64,000 nt of DNA. It comes from Escherichia coli. Its GTDB lineage: Bacteria > Pseudomonadota > Gammaproteobacteria > Enterobacterales > Enterobacteriaceae. A model generated the notes under the pieces. That model did not search any database, was not told the DNA's origin, and was given only the letters and a program-made list of their open reading frames with translations. The translations under genes and the position numbers were made by a program. The number at the start of each line of letters is the position of its first letter. The first letter of the stretch is position 1. The DNA is taken from NCBI GenBank assembly GCA_032372955.1, contig GCA_032372955.1_4725.1; one strand, 5' to 3'. This document shows, in pieces, positions 49,278-57,851 of the stretch.

Positions 49278-49426
49278 CGTAGGGAAAAGTTATGCGGCAT
49301 TTTTAGTGTTGTATCACGACCTCAATAACGGTAAGTGTTTACTGATACTATAGTGGCGCATGCACGCGTGTACGCTATGGTCTATCGACCGACTTATATA
49401 AGTTAATTCTGTAAAGGATACTTTCA

Positions 49427-51649
49427 ATGAATGATAAAACCCTTCTTAGCCAACAGGTCGCGGCCACTCGCCAGTTCCTGACCGCTAATGGTAGCAAACC
49501 AGCAGACAAAGGTCTGGAGAACACCTTCCTGTCTATGGAATCTGCTTCTAAGGTTGATTTCAAATCCATGGACAAACTGGTTAACGAAATGGATGTTAAG
49601 AGCTTCAGCAGCGACATCCGTAAAGCAGAAGAACCGGTTCTGTCCATGCTGGGCTTCGAAACCACCACTCCGGAAGAGAAGCAGCGTATTGAAGAACAGC
49701 TGTTCACCATGAACGCACAGCAGGCTCGTGCAGCAGCACTGATCATGCTGGCTCATGGCAACCCGGTGGAATATGCTAAACAAGCACGTTCCATGAACAT
49801 CAGCACCACTCCGTCTGGCCGTGAAGTTGACAGCTCTAACTTCGTCATGATGGCCGCCGATTCCTGCGGTTGCGAATCTGAAGAACTGGTTCAGCTGTCC
49901 TACGACCAGAAAGAACTGCGTGACATGATGCCGTACTCCGTTGTGTTCAACGTGAAGGCTTCTCGTCTGAGCCGCATGGGTAACGAACTGTACAACACCA
50001 TCGTTCTGGCTCCGAACCAGATCGGTTACGACGTATCTTTCCGTCGTCCGCTGGTGTTCAACCACCTGCGTCGTAACGCTGACGGTACTCCGGCTGATTG
50101 GGTACGTCGTCCGCTGCTGGATGCGTTCATGTACAACGACGTTCTGTCCAACGACGTGACCGATCTGCATCCGATCTATCGTGCTGACGATGCTAACGCG
50201 CAGTACTTCGTTGACAAAACTATCGTTGCTCCGCGTGACATCGAAATTAAAGGCGTAACTTACAAAACGTCTTACCTGGCCGTTGATAAACTGATCGACA
50301 TGATCGGTATTGCTGAAGACGATAGCATCCTGGCTAACGGTTACAGCGACAACACCGACGCGCTGGACGCTCAGATCACGCTGACCAAAATCCTGGTGGA
50401 AATCAAATCCACCAAACACAGCAAAACCTCTTACGTACCGTTCGACGTATCTGGTCTGATCACCAACGGTTTCCAGAAATCCCTGGAAGGCGACTTCCGC
50501 AAAATGACCCTGGCGTTCGACACCCACTCCATCTTCGTTGATGAGAACACCGTTGACGTTAAAGGTGCACGAGCTGAAGCGCTGCAGGACATCATCGATT
50601 CGAAATCCGCTGCTCAGCTGGCAATCGAAGTTTACGGTTCTTCCAACGTAGAGAAAGCCGGTCTGCGTGTTAACGGCGCTAACGCTGAACTGTATCGTCT
50701 GGTCGATCGTGACAACATCGAACAACCGCGTAAGGGCGAAGAGTTCAAACAGCTGGCTGAAGACCTGAGCTTCAAACTGGTTGGTTACGAACTGCGTATC
50801 CGCCGTAACAACAGCAACCGTCGTGAGCGTGGTAAGCACCTTGACTTCAACATGAAGCAAGAACGTTACGCAATCGGCCTGCTGGCTCCGTTCTCCATTC
50901 CTCGTCCGCTGGATTGGGAAGAAAACGCTGCTGACCTGGACGTTCTGATCCAAGCTGCTAACGCACGTTTCGACAACCTGATGGTTGAGAAACTGTTCAG
51001 CTACAAAGACGCACTGAAAGCGGTTGCGACCTCTCGCTTCCGTCAGTTCGGCGACATCCAGATCGAAGGTTTCGGTCGTTACCTGATCCGTCCGTGGTTC
51101 GAAGAAATCAATCTGGACCTGGAGAAATCTGTTCAGGGTACCACCACTGCAGAACGTCGTGCTGAAGTGTCCGCTGCGATCATGAACGTGATTCGTGAGA
51201 TGGCATACCGCATGTACTCCGAGTCTGGTTATCAGCCAGCTCTGCAGCTGCTGTCTTCCAACGCTGATGAGAAACCGCGTTGCGTAGTAGCAACTGACAA
51301 CTACATCCCGCAGTTCCTGCAGACCGATGGCGATTTCCGTACCGTTGGTGTGAGCTTCAACTTCGTGGTTGTAGATAACCCGAACGTCATGCTGCGCGAT
51401 AAGATCTTCGTGACCCTGTCTCGTGGTATCCAGGGTTCTCCGGATCCGCTGACCTTCGGTATGTTCCTGTATGTACCGGAACTGGTATCTGTTGCTCAGG
51501 TTACCCGTAACGGTCAGGTTTCTAAAGAAACCATGGTTCAGCCGCGCTGCCGCTTCGTTAACAACTGCCCGCTGCTGGGTCTGATTAACGTTGTGAACCT
51601 GCGTAAGGTCTACACTGAAAACATCAAGCTGCCTGTTCAGACTAACTGA
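49427..51649 (+). CDS. Highly expressed virion structural protein (740 aa), major capsid protein candidate
   Basis: Strongest host-optimised codon usage in the window, producing a 766-aa mirror ORF on the minus strand; size fits jumbo-phage major capsid proteins; followed by a hairpin-TATGC element. Confidence 0.5.
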   Translation: MNDKTLLSQQVAATRQFLTANGSKPADKGLENTFLSMESASKVDFKSMDKLVNEMDVKSFSSDIRKAEEPVLSMLGFETTTPEEKQRIEEQLFTMNAQQARAAALIMLAHGNPVEYAKQARSMNISTTPSGREVDSSNFVMMAADSCGCESEELVQLSYDQKELRDMMPYSVVFNVKASRLSRMGNELYNTIVLAPNQIGYDVSFRRPLVFNHLRRNADGTPADWVRRPLLDAFMYNDVLSNDVTDLHPIYRADDANAQYFVDKTIVAPRDIEIKGVTYKTSYLAVDKLIDMIGIAEDDSILANGYSDNTDALDAQITLTKILVEIKSTKHSKTSYVPFDVSGLITNGFQKSLEGDFRKMTLAFDTHSIFVDENTVDVKGARAEALQDIIDSKSAAQLAIEVYGSSNVEKAGLRVNGANAELYRLVDRDNIEQPRKGEEFKQLAEDLSFKLVGYELRIRRNNSNRRERGKHLDFNMKQERYAIGLLAPFSIPRPLDWEENAADLDVLIQAANARFDNLMVEKLFSYKDALKAVATSRFRQFGDIQIEGFGRYLIRPWFEEINLDLEKSVQGTTTAERRAEVSAAIMNVIREMAYRMYSESGYQPALQLLSSNADEKPRCVVATDNYIPQFLQTDGDFRTVGVSFNFVVVDNPNVMLRDKIFVTLSRGIQGSPDPLTFGMFLYVPELVSVAQVTRNGQVSKETMVQPRCRFVNNCPLLGLINVVNLRKVYTENIKLPVQTN

Positions 51650-51747
51650 ACTACCGTAGCTGCTTCGTTGGACGATATTCTTGACGACAACGTTGCGGAT
51701 GGTTTCATTGCACCGGACATTCATCCGGCACCGTGATACATAAGTCA

Positions 51748-51789
51748 GCCTCCCTCAGCCCGTAAGGGTTGGGGGAGGTTTCTATGCCG
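51748..51789 (+). terminator. GC-rich hairpin followed by TTTCTATGCCG
   Basis: CCTCCC-tcagcccgtaagggttg-GGGAGG, then TTTCTATGCCG; ~100 bp after the stop at 51649. Confidence 0.5.
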
Positions 51790-51811
51790 TTTACGTTGTG
51801 AATAGAAAAAA

Positions 51812-51830
51812 TTTGACGCTTACATTACCT
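51812..51830 (+). promoter_or_regulatory. Conserved promoter-like box TTTGACGCTTACATTACCT (copy 3 of 3)
   Basis: Shares the ACATTACCT core and the downstream AGGTGACAGA with copies 1 and 2; ~155 bp upstream of the start at 51986. Confidence 0.45.
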
Positions 51831-51985
51831 AGGTGACAGACGCCTGCGATGAATAAGGCATAGACAACACGTAAGGTCGTTCTCGCGCTAGGAACGATGC
51901 TGAAACCGTCGGCTGTCGGCTCGATAAGAACAAGAAAAGGGAAATGCGTTATGCGTGATAGTTTTCAATCAGATGGAGGTTGACG

Positions 51986-53422
51986 ATGCCCTCCATGCCA
52001 ATATGTGATACCGCGTTCGAACCGTGGGATGGTACGCACGCTTATCGCATTGACGGTTATGCTGAACCGTTATATGACCTGGAATTAGGATGGGCATGTA
52101 TTAATGAATCTGGCCATACCGTGTTGGTGATCACCTCCGACAATATGTTCCAGTACATTCCTGGTAGGGTTGAGGACGGCAATACATTCAGGATCGTACG
52201 ACGTTCAAAATTTCGTAGTCCTGTAATAGTTGACAGCCATGACGTATCTAATGCGAATGGTGCATTCAGAAACTTCGTCTACGCGGGTAGACGTCGGGAT
52301 ATACTCCGTGTTAAAAACGGCACAGGTTACGCGATAAGGAAACCGCATATCCGTCGTATTGTTAACACAGAGAAAATGCCGCGTCTACTAGACCAGCAAG
52401 ACTGGTACGATACGCTGGATGAAATATGTCAAATTGACCTCAACACGTTGAACTTTAATCAACCCGCATATGTCGCGCAAATCAACGTGGCAATCGTAAA
52501 AGTTAAAGGAGAATACAAAAGCGCAGACCACGTTACGAAAGGGATTGATCACCCCTACATCGCAACGTGCGCGCGGAGCTTGACGGGAAAAACAGAGGGT
52601 TTCCGAATTCTCGGAACGCAACTCACTATCCATTGGACGCCACCCGACTTTCATAATCCGTATAGCTTATGGGTTAACGTGTTAGGGAAAGCGTTCGAAA
52701 TAAAACCAACGAATGGAGCAGGCGCGCCAGGTATGTTGGTTACCTTCGGGAATAATGACTCCATCTTCGTACCGGTCGAAGATTTGGAAAAAGAGATGTG
52801 GAAGTACAATGTTTTTCCGACACGTGAATCGGCATTGCATTGGCGCGACCCCGTCCAAAAAGAAGCCTACAAAAATGATTTCGACCAACGTAGCTACGAA
52901 CGTAAGGCATCGGAAGAAACCCTTAAAGGGGTGATGGCTGAAATGCGACGTATGGCGGATGAACACAAGGCAGTTATCGCACAGATGCATGAGGCGCATC
53001 GCGCCGACGCAAAGCTGCGCGATGAACAACATAAAGCCGAACTCGATCAGCTTAAAGACGAACAAAAACGTAGGATGGAACAACACCAAGCCGAAATGAA
53101 ACGTCAAGATGATCTACGTAAACAAATACACGAAGATTATCAAGCTGATTTAAAACGTCGTGATGATGAGGCTAAACGCAAACATGAAGAATTCGTCGCT
53201 GAACTTCGTCGTCGAGATGAAGAATCCAAACGTAAGCACGACGAGTTTGCTGCTGAGATACGCCGACGTGATGAAGAGGCAAAAAGACAACGTGAAGCGG
53301 AAGAAGCGCGACGTCAACGTAACGTCGATGTTTGGAAAGCCGCTGCGAGTATAACTGCGGCCGTTGTCGGTATAGGTATGACCTTTTTCAAGATTCTTGA
53401 GAAGGCGTCATCGAAAAAGTAA
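51986..53422 (+). CDS. Tail-anchored protein with E/R/K-rich repeat helix and C-terminal transmembrane segment
   Basis: ATG at 51986 follows GGAGG (track start 51980 is TTG); three tandem 18-aa repeats KRRDDEAKRKHEEFVAE / LRRRDEESKRKHDEFAAE / IRRRDEEAKRQREAEEAR; C-terminal AAASITAAVVGIGMTFFKIL. Confidence 0.55.
   Translation: MPSMPICDTAFEPWDGTHAYRIDGYAEPLYDLELGWACINESGHTVLVITSDNMFQYIPGRVEDGNTFRIVRRSKFRSPVIVDSHDVSNANGAFRNFVYAGRRRDILRVKNGTGYAIRKPHIRRIVNTEKMPRLLDQQDWYDTLDEICQIDLNTLNFNQPAYVAQINVAIVKVKGEYKSADHVTKGIDHPYIATCARSLTGKTEGFRILGTQLTIHWTPPDFHNPYSLWVNVLGKAFEIKPTNGAGAPGMLVTFGNNDSIFVPVEDLEKEMWKYNVFPTRESALHWRDPVQKEAYKNDFDQRSYERKASEETLKGVMAEMRRMADEHKAVIAQMHEAHRADAKLRDEQHKAELDQLKDEQKRRMEQHQAEMKRQDDLRKQIHEDYQADLKRRDDEAKRKHEEFVAELRRRDEESKRKHDEFAAEIRRRDEEAKRQREAEEARRQRNVDVWKAAASITAAVVGIGMTFFKILEKASSKK
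53149..53316 (+). repeat. Intragenic tandem repeat (3 x ~54 nt) encoding the E/R/K-rich helix
   Basis: Repeated cgtcgtgatgatgag / cgtcgtcgagatgaagaa / cgccgacgtgatgaagag units in frame. Confidence 0.5.
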
Positions 53423-53461
53423 CTTTAATCTGCTTAAGCAACTTTCTGAAAGGAGTGTGTG

Positions 53462-55258
53462 ATGGATCCTAGATTCTGCAAAGCTGTCGCTGAGCTTGCA
53501 CCGAAGATGAACGAGAAGATAGCACGCAACATCGTCGTCGATAAGATGCAAGATGTTGAGTCCTATGTTGATCGTCTTTGGCGGAACAGCAAAGATAGTT
53601 TACCTAAGGATCTGGTGTATCATGGCCTGCGTCGCTGCATGGCCCGCGAACAGTTCCACTACTTAAGCGGAGGAAAGAAAACCAAAGGGAAGGATAGCGG
53701 TAAGCTGACCTTCGACCTTGCGCCTTCCGATGTGTTTATGGTGATGCTGGAATTCCGCTGGTACGGCGCAATGGAATCAGGTGACCGTCGTGAACCAGGA
53801 AAGGACTACTGCATTATCCGACACCCTCTCCTATTGCCCGCGGTAGGTCAGGGTGGTAAAATGCGTCTACGTGGTGCGAACTTCATTCTCAGTGCGGTGC
53901 TCGCTGACCCTGTAATCAGTTACACGAAAGACATGGCGTTCATCATGCTTCCGCGTGACAAAATCACGGTTAAACGTACACCGTATCAGTTCCTGAGCAA
54001 TGATACACCGACCGGTATCGATTATCGTCATTACCTATCATTACCCTGGTCGCAAATCTATCATCTTACCAAACAAAGTAAAGTGAACGGTGACAACATC
54101 AACCACACCAGCGTAACCACACTGGGTCACTATCTCTTTGCGAAGTATGGGGTGGGTGAGTGTTTCCGACGTTTTGCAGGCGTCGAAGCCGTAACCGGAC
54201 GGAACCTTGCTGAACGTGATTTTCCGCGCGACCAATGGGTAATCTATCGCACCATGGGGGTTATTCCTAAAGGCTTTAGTATCAGCAAAAGCGGTAAAAG
54301 CCGTAGCGCTAGCGCTGTACGTTACAAGCATCCTGATATTCAAATTGCCGTAAGACGTGGAGGCACGGAACGTATTGTTCTTGGCCTTGTCGGCGCATTC
54401 TTGTATCTCATCGACCGTTATTACGATCGTTTTCCGGAAGACTATCCGGTTGAAGAGTTCGCGAATGCGCCAGACCATTGGCGTACATTACTCGGTTTGA
54501 TTATCTTTAATAACAACAATGCAGATGCGCGTTTGTTGCGTGATGTAAACCACCACATCGACAGTCTCGATCTTTACGTTGACGAGATTCAGCAGAAGAA
54601 GTTCAAACAGGAAAATATTCCTTGCGATGACTTCTACGAATTTATGGCGTATCTGATTGACAATGTTACTATCGAAATGAGTCGTGTTGATACCACGACG
54701 ATGTTCGGTAAGGAATTGATGGTGTTGGAATATGTCATGGAGGATGTGCGTAAGAGCATCTTTAAACTGGGGTTCCATCTTAAAACCACAGAACGTGGTA
54801 AACGACAGAACAACCGTAAAGAGATGACCAATCGCGATGTACAGAAGGCGTTGCGAAATCAAGTTGCGACGGAAGCGATTCTCAATATCCAGAGCAATCG
54901 TGATAAGCGTGAGAAAGTGGCAACATCGATTCAGTCACCTGGTGATTGCATGCTGTTCAAAGTGAGCACGCATGTTGTTCTCCAGAGCCAAAATGCAGGC
55001 GGTGCTGCATTGGCTGACGAGAGTCGTTTGGTTAGTGGTTCCATCCCGTTCTGTGCAAGCTATCTGAATCTTCCACACTCCGAACCAACCGGACGTCAGA
55101 AGTTCAGTATGTACGCACCTATCGACGAACGTGGTCGGTTAATCATTACCCCACAAATTGCAAATGACGTTGCAGCAACCAATGCAGGCTTGAAGAAAGA
55201 CGTCGGTCGATTCGATGAAGAAATTGTAGAAATTAACGATCACGACATAATCGATTGA
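53462..55258 (+). CDS. Hypothetical protein (~598 aa)
   Basis: ORF with AAAGGAGTGTGTG before the ATG. Confidence 0.55.
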   Translation: MDPRFCKAVAELAPKMNEKIARNIVVDKMQDVESYVDRLWRNSKDSLPKDLVYHGLRRCMAREQFHYLSGGKKTKGKDSGKLTFDLAPSDVFMVMLEFRWYGAMESGDRREPGKDYCIIRHPLLLPAVGQGGKMRLRGANFILSAVLADPVISYTKDMAFIMLPRDKITVKRTPYQFLSNDTPTGIDYRHYLSLPWSQIYHLTKQSKVNGDNINHTSVTTLGHYLFAKYGVGECFRRFAGVEAVTGRNLAERDFPRDQWVIYRTMGVIPKGFSISKSGKSRSASAVRYKHPDIQIAVRRGGTERIVLGLVGAFLYLIDRYYDRFPEDYPVEEFANAPDHWRTLLGLIIFNNNNADARLLRDVNHHIDSLDLYVDEIQQKKFKQENIPCDDFYEFMAYLIDNVTIEMSRVDTTTMFGKELMVLEYVMEDVRKSIFKLGFHLKTTERGKRQNNRKEMTNRDVQKALRNQVATEAILNIQSNRDKREKVATSIQSPGDCMLFKVSTHVVLQSQNAGGAALADESRLVSGSIPFCASYLNLPHSEPTGRQKFSMYAPIDERGRLIITPQIANDVAATNAGLKKDVGRFDEEIVEINDHDIID

Positions 55259-55292: not shown

Positions 55293-57851
55293 ATGTATAA
55301 TGGCAGTAACAACATGTATCAACAAATGGGCTATAGCGAAAACCCTTATACGAGCACGGTTAATTATGCGGCTGAACAGGTTCGTCAGCAACAGTATCAG
55401 CAATCACCGTACGGCGCATATCCGAATAACGCCTATCAACCACCACAATACCAACAACCCTCATATCAGCAGAACTATAACTTCATCACCCAAGAAGCAA
55501 CGATCGTCAAAATCCGTCAAGCTATCTTTAATGTCCTGAAAGACTTCGCTCAGCAAGACAAAATACAAACCGAGTTCGTCGCACGTTATACCAATAACGA
55601 TATGATGATGGAATCGCTTGTTGAAGACTGTTGTTGGAACGTGTTCTCTTACATCAACCCGATGCCGCAGAACGCGTCCGACGACCAGATCGTCTCTGCT
55701 GCCGTGAGCACAGTTGCGCTGTATCATCTTGTAACGTGGCTCTTTGAACCGAATCAGTACCCGGAATATTATCGCGCGATTGAATTATCACGCATTAACC
55801 CGGAAGCCGCGAATAAGTACACGCAGCTGAATAAAAGCGGGAGCCTGGCACAAATCGCGCAGAAGTCACGTGGTTTGAAGCAGCAGGTGATGCAGATGGG
55901 GATGACTTATCGTGGCCCGCAAGCAAGCGCGATGGTTAGTGGCGGGTACGGTCAACCACAACAGCCAGCGTACGCCATGTATGGTGGAACCTATCCGCAA
56001 CCGCAATACCAGCCTAATCCGGCAGTTATGCGTGGTATGGCTCCAACAACGCCAGGATACGGCGCACAACCTCGGCCGACGGTTGTTCAACCACAAGCGC
56101 CATCGTACATCGATTCGAAGGATTGTGCGTTCAACCGTTTGTATGATGTTGGTGATGACGATCCTATCGTTGATGATGCACCTGCTGCTACAGCGCCGCG
56201 TTACGAGGCACCACAACCACGGATTTACTCGACAAATCCTGAAGGAGATATTGGTGGTATCAACGATATCTTTGCAGCGGCTGAACAGTTTGCTGAACAG
56301 TACGAAGAGCCAGAATGGCATGTTAAGGCTGGGCAGCAGAAACCCGTTCAACCTGAACCTGCGCAGGTGAAACCGGAACCCGTTCGTACGGCTCGTTCTG
56401 CTACGGTAACAAAGACCGTTAATCCAATTGATGCGACCGAAGATGCTAAGCGTTACGGTCGTGTTGTTCAACATGAAGAATTTATGCAGATGCGTCTGAA
56501 AGCCAAAGACTTTGCACCTAATAGTCGTTGGCCGACGTTGTATGACTTCAGACACTTCGCTCGTCGGGCACGTATCGACGAAAACGGAATTCTTCATGAA
56601 ACCATTGTTGACATTACATCCCTCACGGAGGAAGAAGTGGAATACATCGAACTTGAATCAGATCCAACCGCTCGTCGTATGGCAGAGCAGGAAATGGCAA
56701 AACTGGATCGTATCGCGCAAGCAGAAGTTGTTCGTGTTAGCCTTAACAAACCGGTTCAGCGTGAGCCAATCGTTGTCGGTGAGCAGCGCGAAATGAAACT
56801 GTTTACCGTCACCGACGCGATCGCAGCGTCAAGCGTTGAGGATGCTGAAACCAAAGCTGCGGTAGCGATCATCCAGCAGACCAACACCGACGTCAACCAA
56901 AACGACGCATTAGCATTCCTGGCTACCGTCAATTCCTATCTGGGAACCTATACCGACAAAGAGCTAGATGCAATCCATGAATTCCTGGATGCGTTGTCTA
57001 TTGATAAGGGTCGTAGCGACGATATCAAAGCTTATCGTCAGATCATGCAACAGTATCGTGATGTCATTCCTCTGCGTATTTGGCATTTCCTGAACGATAG
57101 CATGACCAAAGACGTTAACAAGCTGATCAAACGTATCGTACCGAAGAACTTCTCTGAAACCACCATCTCTAGCTTCGTTGATGATATCGGAGAACTGTCC
57201 GGTTGGCTGATTCACGATCTTAAAATGGACCAGAAGTTCATTGAAGATGAATTCTCCAATTGCTACTACACCTGGGTCAACATGCTGAAGTGTCTCTACT
57301 GCAATCGCGATGGCGAAGGTCAGTGGAACATTCGTCTTTCCATGGCTGAACTGTACAACATGCATGACTACCTGAAAGCCGCTCACGAAAAATCTGCAGC
57401 GAATCGTGAACGTCATCTGGTTGCCATGAGTGAGTATCGTGCAGAACTGGAGAAAGATGGCTCTCTGGATGCTGACGAAATCGAACGTCGTTTGGCGGAT
57501 GCGGCTATCGAGGATATGCGTGTTAATCCAGACATCGTTACCGACGAAGATAGCAACGATGCTTACTGGTTCAATCACAGCGTATTCGCGATGCGTCCGC
57601 ATGTTGTTGTTCGCGTACCGACCAACGCCAAGATTCTGAAGCTGAACCAGAGCGGTTACACTCACGCATCGGCTGCAACCAACCCAAGCATTGCTCGTAT
57701 GCTGGATCAGGTGTTCAAGACCTTCGAAACCAAAGTAAAAGGTCTGCAATCTGTTACTGTAATTCTGAGCGATGATACTCGTCTGAAAGCAGTACGTACG
57801 GTAAACGGTATTACCGCTTCCGAGTATCTGCTGGAACGTGAAGAGCAGTAA
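55293..57851 (+). CDS. Large protein (852 aa) with Q/Y/P-rich low-complexity N-terminal regions
   Basis: AAAAAGGATCGTAAGAA before the ATG; aa 1-60 (YQQMGYSENPYTS...QYQQSPYGAYPNNAYQPPQYQQPSYQQNY) and aa ~215-300 (GGYGQPQQPAYAMYGGTYPQPQYQPNP...) are Q/Y/P/G-rich. Confidence 0.6.
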   Translation: MYNGSNNMYQQMGYSENPYTSTVNYAAEQVRQQQYQQSPYGAYPNNAYQPPQYQQPSYQQNYNFITQEATIVKIRQAIFNVLKDFAQQDKIQTEFVARYTNNDMMMESLVEDCCWNVFSYINPMPQNASDDQIVSAAVSTVALYHLVTWLFEPNQYPEYYRAIELSRINPEAANKYTQLNKSGSLAQIAQKSRGLKQQVMQMGMTYRGPQASAMVSGGYGQPQQPAYAMYGGTYPQPQYQPNPAVMRGMAPTTPGYGAQPRPTVVQPQAPSYIDSKDCAFNRLYDVGDDDPIVDDAPAATAPRYEAPQPRIYSTNPEGDIGGINDIFAAAEQFAEQYEEPEWHVKAGQQKPVQPEPAQVKPEPVRTARSATVTKTVNPIDATEDAKRYGRVVQHEEFMQMRLKAKDFAPNSRWPTLYDFRHFARRARIDENGILHETIVDITSLTEEEVEYIELESDPTARRMAEQEMAKLDRIAQAEVVRVSLNKPVQREPIVVGEQREMKLFTVTDAIAASSVEDAETKAAVAIIQQTNTDVNQNDALAFLATVNSYLGTYTDKELDAIHEFLDALSIDKGRSDDIKAYRQIMQQYRDVIPLRIWHFLNDSMTKDVNKLIKRIVPKNFSETTISSFVDDIGELSGWLIHDLKMDQKFIEDEFSNCYYTWVNMLKCLYCNRDGEGQWNIRLSMAELYNMHDYLKAAHEKSAANRERHLVAMSEYRAELEKDGSLDADEIERRLADAAIEDMRVNPDIVTDEDSNDAYWFNHSVFAMRPHVVVRVPTNAKILKLNQSGYTHASAATNPSIARMLDQVFKTFETKVKGLQSVTVILSDDTRLKAVRTVNGITASEYLLEREEQ

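Follow-up and report, generated by a model that had tools for sequence, protein, structure and literature searches.

The window analysed here is a stretch of 64,000 nucleotides (nt) from contig GCA_032372955.1_4725.1, part of an assembly deposited as Escherichia coli (GCA_032372955.1). Between the genes for the major capsid protein and for a subunit of the non-virion RNA polymerase (nvRNAP) it carries gp040, a gene whose product of 478 amino acids (aa) is laid out as a β-rich head (aa 1–288), a long charged helix (aa 289–446), and a hydrophobic C-terminus (aa 452–468). Both this head–stalk–hydrophobic end architecture and the family to which the protein belongs are near certain, while the function that we propose for it, that of a membrane-anchored spacer, is held more tentatively. 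The gene lies in an open reading frame (ORF) listed at 51980..53422 on the plus strand, and the ATG at 51986 was taken as its start (Table 1). In a tblastn search of 50,697 phage records the sole match was Escherichia phage vB_EcoM_Goslar, with 99.2% identity between gp040 and Goslar_00040. Against the GenBank Goslar record (MK327938) the window copy has 23 nt and 4 aa changes (I260V, V290I, K379R, S414A), so the window comes from a very close relative of Goslar and not from Goslar itself, read on the strand opposite to the GenBank record. An original prediction, made from the letters of the window, had assumed a jumbo phage, and a Goslar-like, nucleus-forming jumbo phage is indeed what the window holds. 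Two IMG/VR contigs hold additional near-identical variants of gp040.

Table 1. Features of the gp040 locus (positions in the window; aa, residues of gp040)
Feature	Position	Strand	Extent and basis
Major capsid protein gene, PhiKZ-type	49427-51649		upstream of gp040; PF25620, E = 4.6e-216
Strong RNA hairpin	51743..51783	+	minimum free energy -30 kcal/mol, z = -6.0 vs shuffles
Shine–Dalgarno GGAGG	51975..51979	+	6 nt 5' of ATG 51986; read from sequence
Coding sequence, 478 aa plus stop	51986..53422	+	Goslar gp040 (QBO63833, Goslar_00040 'hypothetical protein'), Chimalliviridae cg35
N-terminal head	51986..52849	+	aa 1-288; β-rich, without recognisable fold
Charged stalk	52850..53323	+	aa 289-446; net charge 0; AlphaFold2 single helix aa 289-440
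18-aa (54-nt, five-turn) repeat array	52916..53347	+	aa 311-454; lag autocorrelation, unit identity matrix
Five well-preserved units	53024-53293	+	aa 347-436
Three repeats of the original prediction	53150..53311	+	aa 389-442: LKRRDDEAKRKHEEFVAE / LRRRDEESKRKHDEFAAE / IRRRDEEAKRQREAEEAR
C-terminal hydrophobic helix, candidate tail anchor	53333..53398	+	W450-L471; hydropathy, AlphaFold2
Basic tail KILEKASSKK	53390..53419	+	aa 469-478; invariant in close relatives except A474V
Polymerase gene (nvRNAP subunit)	53459..55258	+	PHROG 2943 'polymerase', E = 7e-120; Goslar annotation

gp040 is the Goslar-clade orthologue of cg35, a core gene of the Chimalliviridae that is represented by PhiKZ gp122, PhiPA3 gene 138, 201phi2-1 gp202, and RAY gp1. 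Table S3 of Prichard 2023 (PMC10299810) equates Goslar gp040 with cg35, PhiKZ gp122, and RAY gp001 and marks cg35 as unique to chimallin-encoding phages, and we place gp040 in this family because synteny, PHROG 7727, and Foldseek all agree with that assignment. Goslar, 17 further phage genomes, and two metagenomic contigs all have the order capsid gene, cg35, nvRNAP gene, with cg35 directly 3' of the capsid gene in all genomes examined except those of Halocynthia phage JM-2012 and Serratia phage PCH45. gp040 matches PHROG 7727 with E = 1e-5, as do six of nine orthologues with E-values down to 3e-140. Foldseek against BFVD returned 28 matches at E <= 1e-3, all of them uncharacterised proteins of chimalliviruses or related uncultured phages; those at E ~1e-10 include 201phi2-1 gp202, Eowyn, Phabio, and RisingSun, and RP12, pEt-SU, and Psa21 are also among the matches. 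Direct BLAST with gp040 found nothing beyond Goslar and did not reach PhiKZ. A phmmer search of 1.8 billion representatives gave three clusters, two of them beyond its own (P0015 and P0016, ~31% identity, E ~1e-24), whose loci both run DnaB, small ORF, capsid gene, cg35, and nvRNAP gene; a profile search extended the family by one protein, and IMG/VR by three near-identical loci. All family matches are chimalliviruses or uncultured Myoviridae, in searches that did not systematically cover phages lacking chimallin. While cg35 is thus already catalogued as a chimallivirus core gene, with orthologues that have surfaced in three screens, what appears to be new here is the architecture of gp040, its candidate membrane anchor, and its repeat-built stalk, none of which is described in the searchable papers. 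Goslar gp40 and the protein accessions of its family are likewise unmentioned in those papers.

All 21 orthologues examined combine a head, a helical linker, and a hydrophobic C-terminus, with linkers ranging from 43 aa (PCH45, 201phi2-1) to 168 aa in gp040 itself. The annotated orthologue of Xanthomonas phage RTH11 is only 207 aa long and lacks most of the head; probably its start is mis-annotated or the gene is truncated. The N-terminal domain of ~300 aa proposed in the original prediction corresponds well to the head, which ends near aa 288 in a family motif, G-(L/V/I)-(F/Y)-x-T..E-x-A. Pfam gave no match to gp040 at E <= 0.1 and only marginal, single-member matches to its orthologues (E >= 0.007), and profile search found no relative in the PDB. 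AlphaFold2 was run on the monomer with a shallow alignment of 10 sequences. In the resulting model the core strands of the head have a predicted local distance difference test score (pLDDT) of 70–84, with aa 76–142 below 50, and overall pLDDT is 52.8 for a head-only model vs 65.4 for the full-length one. Because these head models are weak, the missing fold matches are weak evidence.

The charged region described in the original prediction is real, in that aa 301–446 are rich in E/R/K/D/A/Q; D, E, K, and R make up 59% of aa 345–452, with 10% A and 9% Q, and 52% of the linker as a whole is charged. AlphaFold2 models the region as an unbroken, non-globular helix at a pLDDT of ~80–85, followed by a short break and a second helix at aa 444–468. 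If straight, this stalk would measure ~22–23 nm (152 residues x 0.15 nm = 22.8 nm). Across aa 289–446 there are 86 attractive charge pairs at spacings of i+3/i+4 where shuffled sequences give 44+-5 (z = 8.1), and 11 like-charge pairs where shuffles give 43 (z = -6.3), with a net charge of exactly 0. Read from the residues independently of the AlphaFold2 model, this pattern is the signature of a single alpha-helix (SAH) of the ER/K type.

The original prediction had left the region between a single helix and a coiled coil, and of these the SAH-type charge pairing is present and the heptad period is not. Hydrophobicity along the stalk has a spectral power of 0.21 at period 3.5 vs 1.18 at period 3.6, so that the stalk does not fit a canonical heptad coiled coil, with its 3.5-residue period and occupied a and d positions. 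Three points nevertheless weaken the reading as a monomeric helix. First, the hydrophobicity of the stalk peaks at a period of 3.62 residues (18/5; p = 0.0008), and over aa 311–446 all 22 hydrophobic residues fall inside an arc of 240 degrees when plotted at 100 degrees per residue (resultant 0.59), a hydrophobic stripe that sets the stalk apart from a pure ER/K helix. Second, a monomer run of AlphaFold2 cannot separate a single alpha-helix from a coiled coil. Third, most orthologues have heptad-like linkers with periods of 3.4–3.5 (several, among them RTH11, RisingSun, RAY, and FLC4-4C, were measured in this range), which makes oligomerisation plausible. The stalk could therefore be an oligomeric, straight coiled coil of a non-heptad kind (18 residues, 7+11), making the protein a dimeric or trimeric membrane-anchored fibre. 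The stripe and the classical linkers of the orthologues speak for this, as do indels of 11 and 18 residues, about three and exactly five helical turns, that preserve the stripe among relatives, and small-xxx-small motifs in the C-terminal segment that favour helix–helix association. Set against it are the share of hydrophobic residues, only 17%, the distal 64 residues with only seven of them and with Arg or His at the would-be core positions, and the extreme optimisation of salt bridges, which stabilises isolated helices; on these grounds we consider the oligomer somewhat unlikely. We prefer to describe the stalk as an SAH-like, straight helix stabilised by salt bridges and carrying a sparse hydrophobic seam, with a monomeric state that is predicted.

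Much of this stalk is built from an 18-aa repeat. Residue identity at a lag of 18 is 0.35 (z = 9.7 over 2000 shuffles), with further signals at lags of 36 (z = 5.9) and 54 (z = 5.2), and the array runs to about eight units, of which five are clear, one is degenerate (aa 437–454), and two are very degenerate (aa 311–346). The three tandem repeats picked out in the original prediction are genuine and form the best-preserved part of this longer array. The DNA repeat of ~54 nt that had been placed at 53149..53316 is located correctly to within 1–5 nt, although its periodicity is weak: adjacent 54-nt units are 63–67% identical, the longest exact word that they share is 9 nt, Tandem Repeats Finder reported nothing in 51500-54000, and a DNA repeat search returned no more than a 14-nt core recurring every 54 nt. 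As DNA, the repeat is old. A slippage hotspot at these positions was considered and dropped, since units this diverged do not make one.

The length of the stalk does vary between related phages, as had been anticipated. Among Goslar-like relatives from public assemblies gp040 is 460, 478, 489, or 507 aa long, giving stalks of 134, 152, 163, and 181 residues in near-identical phages. These differences trace to three indels: 11 aa are inserted after aa 318, 18 aa are missing within aa 347–364, and 18 aa are inserted after aa 386. Each lies upstream of the three repeats at aa 389–442, whose number, like the juxtamembrane stretch, is the same in all of these relatives, so the proposed hotspot was wrong in both place and mechanism. 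As 11 residues make about three helical turns and 18 make five, we infer that these indels leave the rotational register between head and anchor unchanged. Goslar-like copies of gp040 also occur in assemblies labelled Salmonella enterica and E. coli O157; the longest of these contigs, at ~244 kb, represent a whole phage genome, in line with reports that virulent jumbo phages can persist in bacterial isolates.

Substitutions are distributed unevenly along the protein. In comparisons with ~85%-identical relatives, synonymous and nonsynonymous changes number 9–10 and 0 in the C-terminal 32 codons, 84 and 28 in the head, and 32–34 and 26–42 in the stalk, making the C-terminus the most constrained part and the stalk the least. 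The stalk thus evolves rapidly and gains and loses segments while its composition is kept, and a fast-evolving, indel-prone stalk of constant composition is the behaviour expected of a spacer. One relative, P0003, is a mosaic, with a head of the Goslar type (5 nonsynonymous changes in 288 codons) and a proximal stalk of the type found in P0005 (41 in 158 codons), including the 11-aa insertion of that lineage, which indicates that a stalk module was exchanged by recombination inside the stalk-coding region.

The C-terminal hydrophobic helix of the original prediction was recovered, since the top eight Kyte–Doolittle windows of 19 residues all start at aa 447–456 (maximum 1.76); its ability to span a membrane proved marginal. 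The core, A452–F468 (nt 53339-53389), consists of 17 uncharged residues, AAASITAAVVGIGMTFF, between W450–K451 and K469, is rich in small residues (AxxxG, GxG), and falls in the second AlphaFold2 helix, with a pLDDT of ~60. gp040 has this one hydrophobic segment within ~30 residues of the C-terminus and neither a signal peptide nor another transmembrane segment, which is how tail anchors are defined. In 19 of the 21 orthologues the most hydrophobic 19-mer ends no more than 14 residues from the C-terminus, and an arrangement of K/R, 9–17 hydrophobic residues, K, 2–5 hydrophobic residues, and the end of the chain recurs in most of them. Relative to the ~30%-identical relatives, the flanks VDxWK, K, and EK are kept and the core residues are swapped for others that are still hydrophobic, a pattern that a lipid-facing helix would show. 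A tail anchor is therefore plausible, as a prediction, for the Goslar clade.

Several properties of the segment count against this anchor. In gp040 it is short for a transmembrane helix, with 17 uncharged residues (20 with K469-I-L), a Kyte–Doolittle maximum of 1.76, and a simple Hessa sum of +2.8 kcal/mol. Across the family the classical Kyte–Doolittle threshold of 1.6 is exceeded in only eight of 21 orthologues, and in PhiKZ, PhiPA3, 201phi2-1, and Phabio D, E, or K lies inside the segment, which cannot span a bilayer there. The property conserved family-wide may accordingly be that of a docking helix, hydrophobic or amphipathic, and not the ability to cross a bilayer. The C-terminal helix would then plug into a protein partner, or lie in the plane of the membrane as a peripheral targeting helix of the MinD/FtsA kind, and the protein would be a strut associated with the shell or the capsid. 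The segments of PhiKZ, PhiPA3, 201phi2-1, Phabio, PDCC-1, CF8, and FBKp24, which contain charged residues, have longest uncharged runs of 6–9 residues and Kyte–Doolittle maxima of 0.95–1.45, as such a helix might; the central Gly and small residues conserved family-wide fit helix–helix packing, and the PhiPA3 orthologue has been found with ChmA and ChmB, as described below. However, the Goslar clade, FLC4-4C, RTH11, JM-2012, and BONAISHI have 13–17 uncharged residues flanked on both sides by Lys or Arg, with Trp frequently found at the N-terminal border, as is typical of membrane interfaces, and the lack of conserved residue identity in the core, against the ~30%-identical relatives, argues against a specific protein groove. 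The helix also lacks similarity to the N- and C-terminal tail segments through which ChmA makes its lattice contacts: mimicry of the ChmA tail was tried as an explanation and rejected, with a local score of 22 for aa 445–478 against Goslar ChmA (gp189) where shuffles gave a mean of 24.5+-3.6. A docking helix in place of an anchor seems rather unlikely to us for gp040, though across the family a peripheral or protein-docking helix is a serious contender, and a true transmembrane anchor is evenly balanced.

Turning to the surroundings of the gene, the polymerase gene starts 36–39 nt past the gp040 stop, and a consensus terminator scan found no terminator-like site between the two, which are probably co-transcribed. 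The pair is similarly closely spaced in the 17 other phage genomes and in both metagenomic relatives. On the other side, the hairpin that lies ~100 nt past the stop of the capsid gene has a perfect, GC-rich stem of 15 bp followed by UUUCU. Its short T-tract left it unflagged in the same scan. The capsid transcript probably ends here, in which case gp040 would belong to a separate unit. A promoter search found no sigma-70-like promoter for gp040, so that the timing of its expression is read from gene spacing only. The motif TACATTACCT, tried as a candidate promoter, was not over-represented (4 matches where 2.6 are expected). In PhiKZ the end of gp122 and the start of gp123 are 10 nt apart, and the nvRNAP subunits, gp123 among them, belong to the early products (PMC4666361). 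From this spacing, the hairpin on the capsid side, and the lack of a terminator before the polymerase gene, we infer that gp040 shares a transcript with the polymerase subunit gene and that its product is an early one.

The space between the capsid gene and gp040 in the window is 336 nt of non-coding DNA (51650-51985). At the corresponding place PhiKZ (gp121), 201phi2-1 (gp201), and PhiPA3 (gene 137) have an extra small ORF that overlaps the start of cg35, and Phabio has one too, non-overlapping. Antisense to the entire major capsid protein gene runs an ORF of 766 aa (49424-51724, minus strand) for which there is no independent support, and which almost certainly owes its existence to the codon usage of the capsid gene. 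Downstream of the polymerase gene lies gp038 (55293-57851, plus strand), an orthologue of PhiKZ gp124 with 852 aa and low-complexity sequence rich in Q/Y/P/N at its N-terminus (e.g. QQQYQQSPYGAYPNNAYQPPQYQQPSYQQNYN) and again at about aa 200–290. PhiKZ124 was also a hit, with strong transcription effects, in the antisense screen (PMC12571901) and received zero transposon insertions (PMC12676376 supplement).

Functional clues come from orthologues. The PhiPA3 protein, matched to the family by accession YP_009217217.1 and gene number 138, was present in ChmA-GFP and ChmB-GFP pull-downs and in ChmA miniTurboID (Enustun 2023, PMC10643120), where it is named alongside gp358 as having 'no annotated or predicted function'. 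In PhiKZ both antisense oligomers against PHIKZ122 were scored '+', and its silencing belonged to the group that strongly affected phage transcription at 30 min, in a screen that singled out ChmA, nvRNAP, and PicA as clustering together (PMC12571901). PHIKZ120-124 received zero transposon insertions, and PHIKZ125 8616 reads, in one supplementary table (PMC12676376). The words 'transmembrane' and 'membrane protein' are absent from the main text of the 2025 Annual Review.

Taken together, these data lead us to propose, tentatively and with the balance tipped just against the package as a whole, that gp040 is a membrane-anchored spacer, probably early, that engages the shell or the capsid-docking machinery. 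The C-terminal helix would insert post-translationally into a bilayer as a tail anchor, the candidate bilayers being the inner membrane and the early-infection vesicle. The stalk would set how far the head reaches into the cytoplasm, at a distance specific to each clade (~20–27 nm in Goslar-like phages, ~6–16 nm elsewhere), and the head would bind a phage assembly. The protein would probably be made early together with the adjacent nvRNAP subunit, and be important for infection. The chimallin (ChmA) shell or the ChmB/capsid-docking machinery is the likeliest target of the head given the ChmA and ChmB proximity data, the restriction of the family to chimallin phages, and its probable early expression; that the head docks on either is possible though, on balance, doubtful. 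The stage at which the early-infection vesicle gives way to the nascent shell would be an attractive setting. The 'ruler or spacer' of the original prediction is a reasonable, if putative, reading of the layout.

Beyond the stripe of the stalk and the marginal anchor, further observations pull the other way. The head matches no recognisable fold, in a model whose confidence is low to medium. The PhiPA3 gene-138 protein was represented in the ChmA-GFP sample by one peptide, with 6% coverage (PMC10643120). The antisense and transposon phenotypes of PhiKZ122 could be polar effects on the essential nvRNAP gene downstream, and the early timing is deduced from the spacing described above, the promoter search having found no match.

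The position of the gene also invites a role in capsid assembly, in which gp040 would be a membrane-bound initiator or platform for procapsids, taking the part that gp40 and the membrane-bound gp20 portal have in T4, with the head binding portal, scaffold, or capsid protein at the inner membrane. cg35 directly follows the major capsid gene in all genomes examined apart from the two exceptions given above. Cryo-electron tomography places partly assembled chimallivirus capsids on the inner membrane, where a 2025 review names no anchoring factor (PMC12908238), and virion proteins, capsid and portal among them, dominated the ChmB pull-down in which the PhiPA3 orthologue was present (PMC10643120). 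Yet the strong hairpin separates gp040 from the capsid gene, and the gene is packed against an early nvRNAP gene instead; the family is limited to chimallin phages whereas the PhiKZ-type capsid gene is not so marked (Prichard 2023); and a stalk that varies from 7 to 25 nm is hard to square with procapsids sitting directly on the membrane. We consider such a platform quite improbable. The Goslar virion paper and two of its supplementary files do not mention gp040, a silence that is neutral for a scaffold-like role.

For the membrane-anchored spacer that we prefer, the head–stalk–anchor layout offers a handle on what connects membranes, whether of the early-infection vesicle or the inner membrane on which procapsids start, to the shell, and the clade-specific stalk offers one on how distances are set in nucleus formation and capsid docking. 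A bolder version, in which cg35 in general is a tail-anchored tether from a lipid membrane to the phage nucleus or capsid-docking complex, with stalk spacing set in units of 18 and 11 residues, is improbable on present evidence; if true, the tether would be the missing membrane-to-shell link in the hand-over from vesicle to nucleus, and, in a bacterial virus, the equivalent of the KASH/LINC and golgin tethers of eukaryotes.

Among known systems the closest are the other cg35 proteins. With PhiKZ gp122, PhiPA3 gene 138, 201phi2-1 gp202, RAY gp1, and EL gp79, gp040 shares the slot between the capsid gene and the nvRNAP beta-N gene, and with the cg35 orthologues PHROG 7727, structural matches, and the layout of head, linker, and hydrophobic end, although sequence identity to PhiKZ gp122 is only ~15%. 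It differs in a linker that has grown from 43–106 aa to ~168 aa through duplication of the 18-aa unit, and that is of the net-neutral ER/K type with a period of 3.6 residues where other cg35 linkers have 3.5, and in that the C-terminus of the Goslar clade is more transmembrane-like than those of the orthologues from Pseudomonas phages.

In bacteriophage T4, gp40 together with the membrane-bound gp20 portal is the initiator of prohead assembly. The likeness to gp040 is at most a possible functional analogy, in that a membrane-located factor would be encoded near head genes and proheads start at the inner membrane; the architecture is different, gp040 is linked to an early polymerase gene and not to a head-gene operon, and homology is not expected.

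Closer in design are the tail-anchored coiled-coil tethers, such as ElaB, YqjD, and YgaM (DUF883) of E. coli, and the golgins and KASH proteins of eukaryotes. gp040 shares with them a soluble N-terminal part, a helical stalk, a C-terminal hydrophobic helix, the lack of a signal peptide, and a hydrophobic segment rich in Gly and Ala, and it differs from them in the weaker hydrophobicity of that segment, in its 10-residue basic tail, in being phage-encoded, and in a membrane insertion that is predicted. It has no sequence relationship to these tethers, and the DUF883 models of Pfam matched neither gp040 at E <= 0.1 nor any of nine orthologues at E <= 0.05.

For the stalk itself the parallel is with the ER/K SAH domains, found for example in the lever extensions of myosin VI and myosin X and in caldesmon. 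The gp040 stalk has in common with these a long uninterrupted helix, a high content of E/R/K/D, zero net charge, an excess of i/i+3 and i/i+4 charge pairs, and a place as spacer between two functional ends, as is proposed here for gp040. It has fewer charged residues (52–59%) than SAH domains, more A, Q, and H, a hydrophobic stripe, and an 18-residue repeat. The stalk of the Goslar clade is a clean natural example of a repeat-built helix of the ER/K type.

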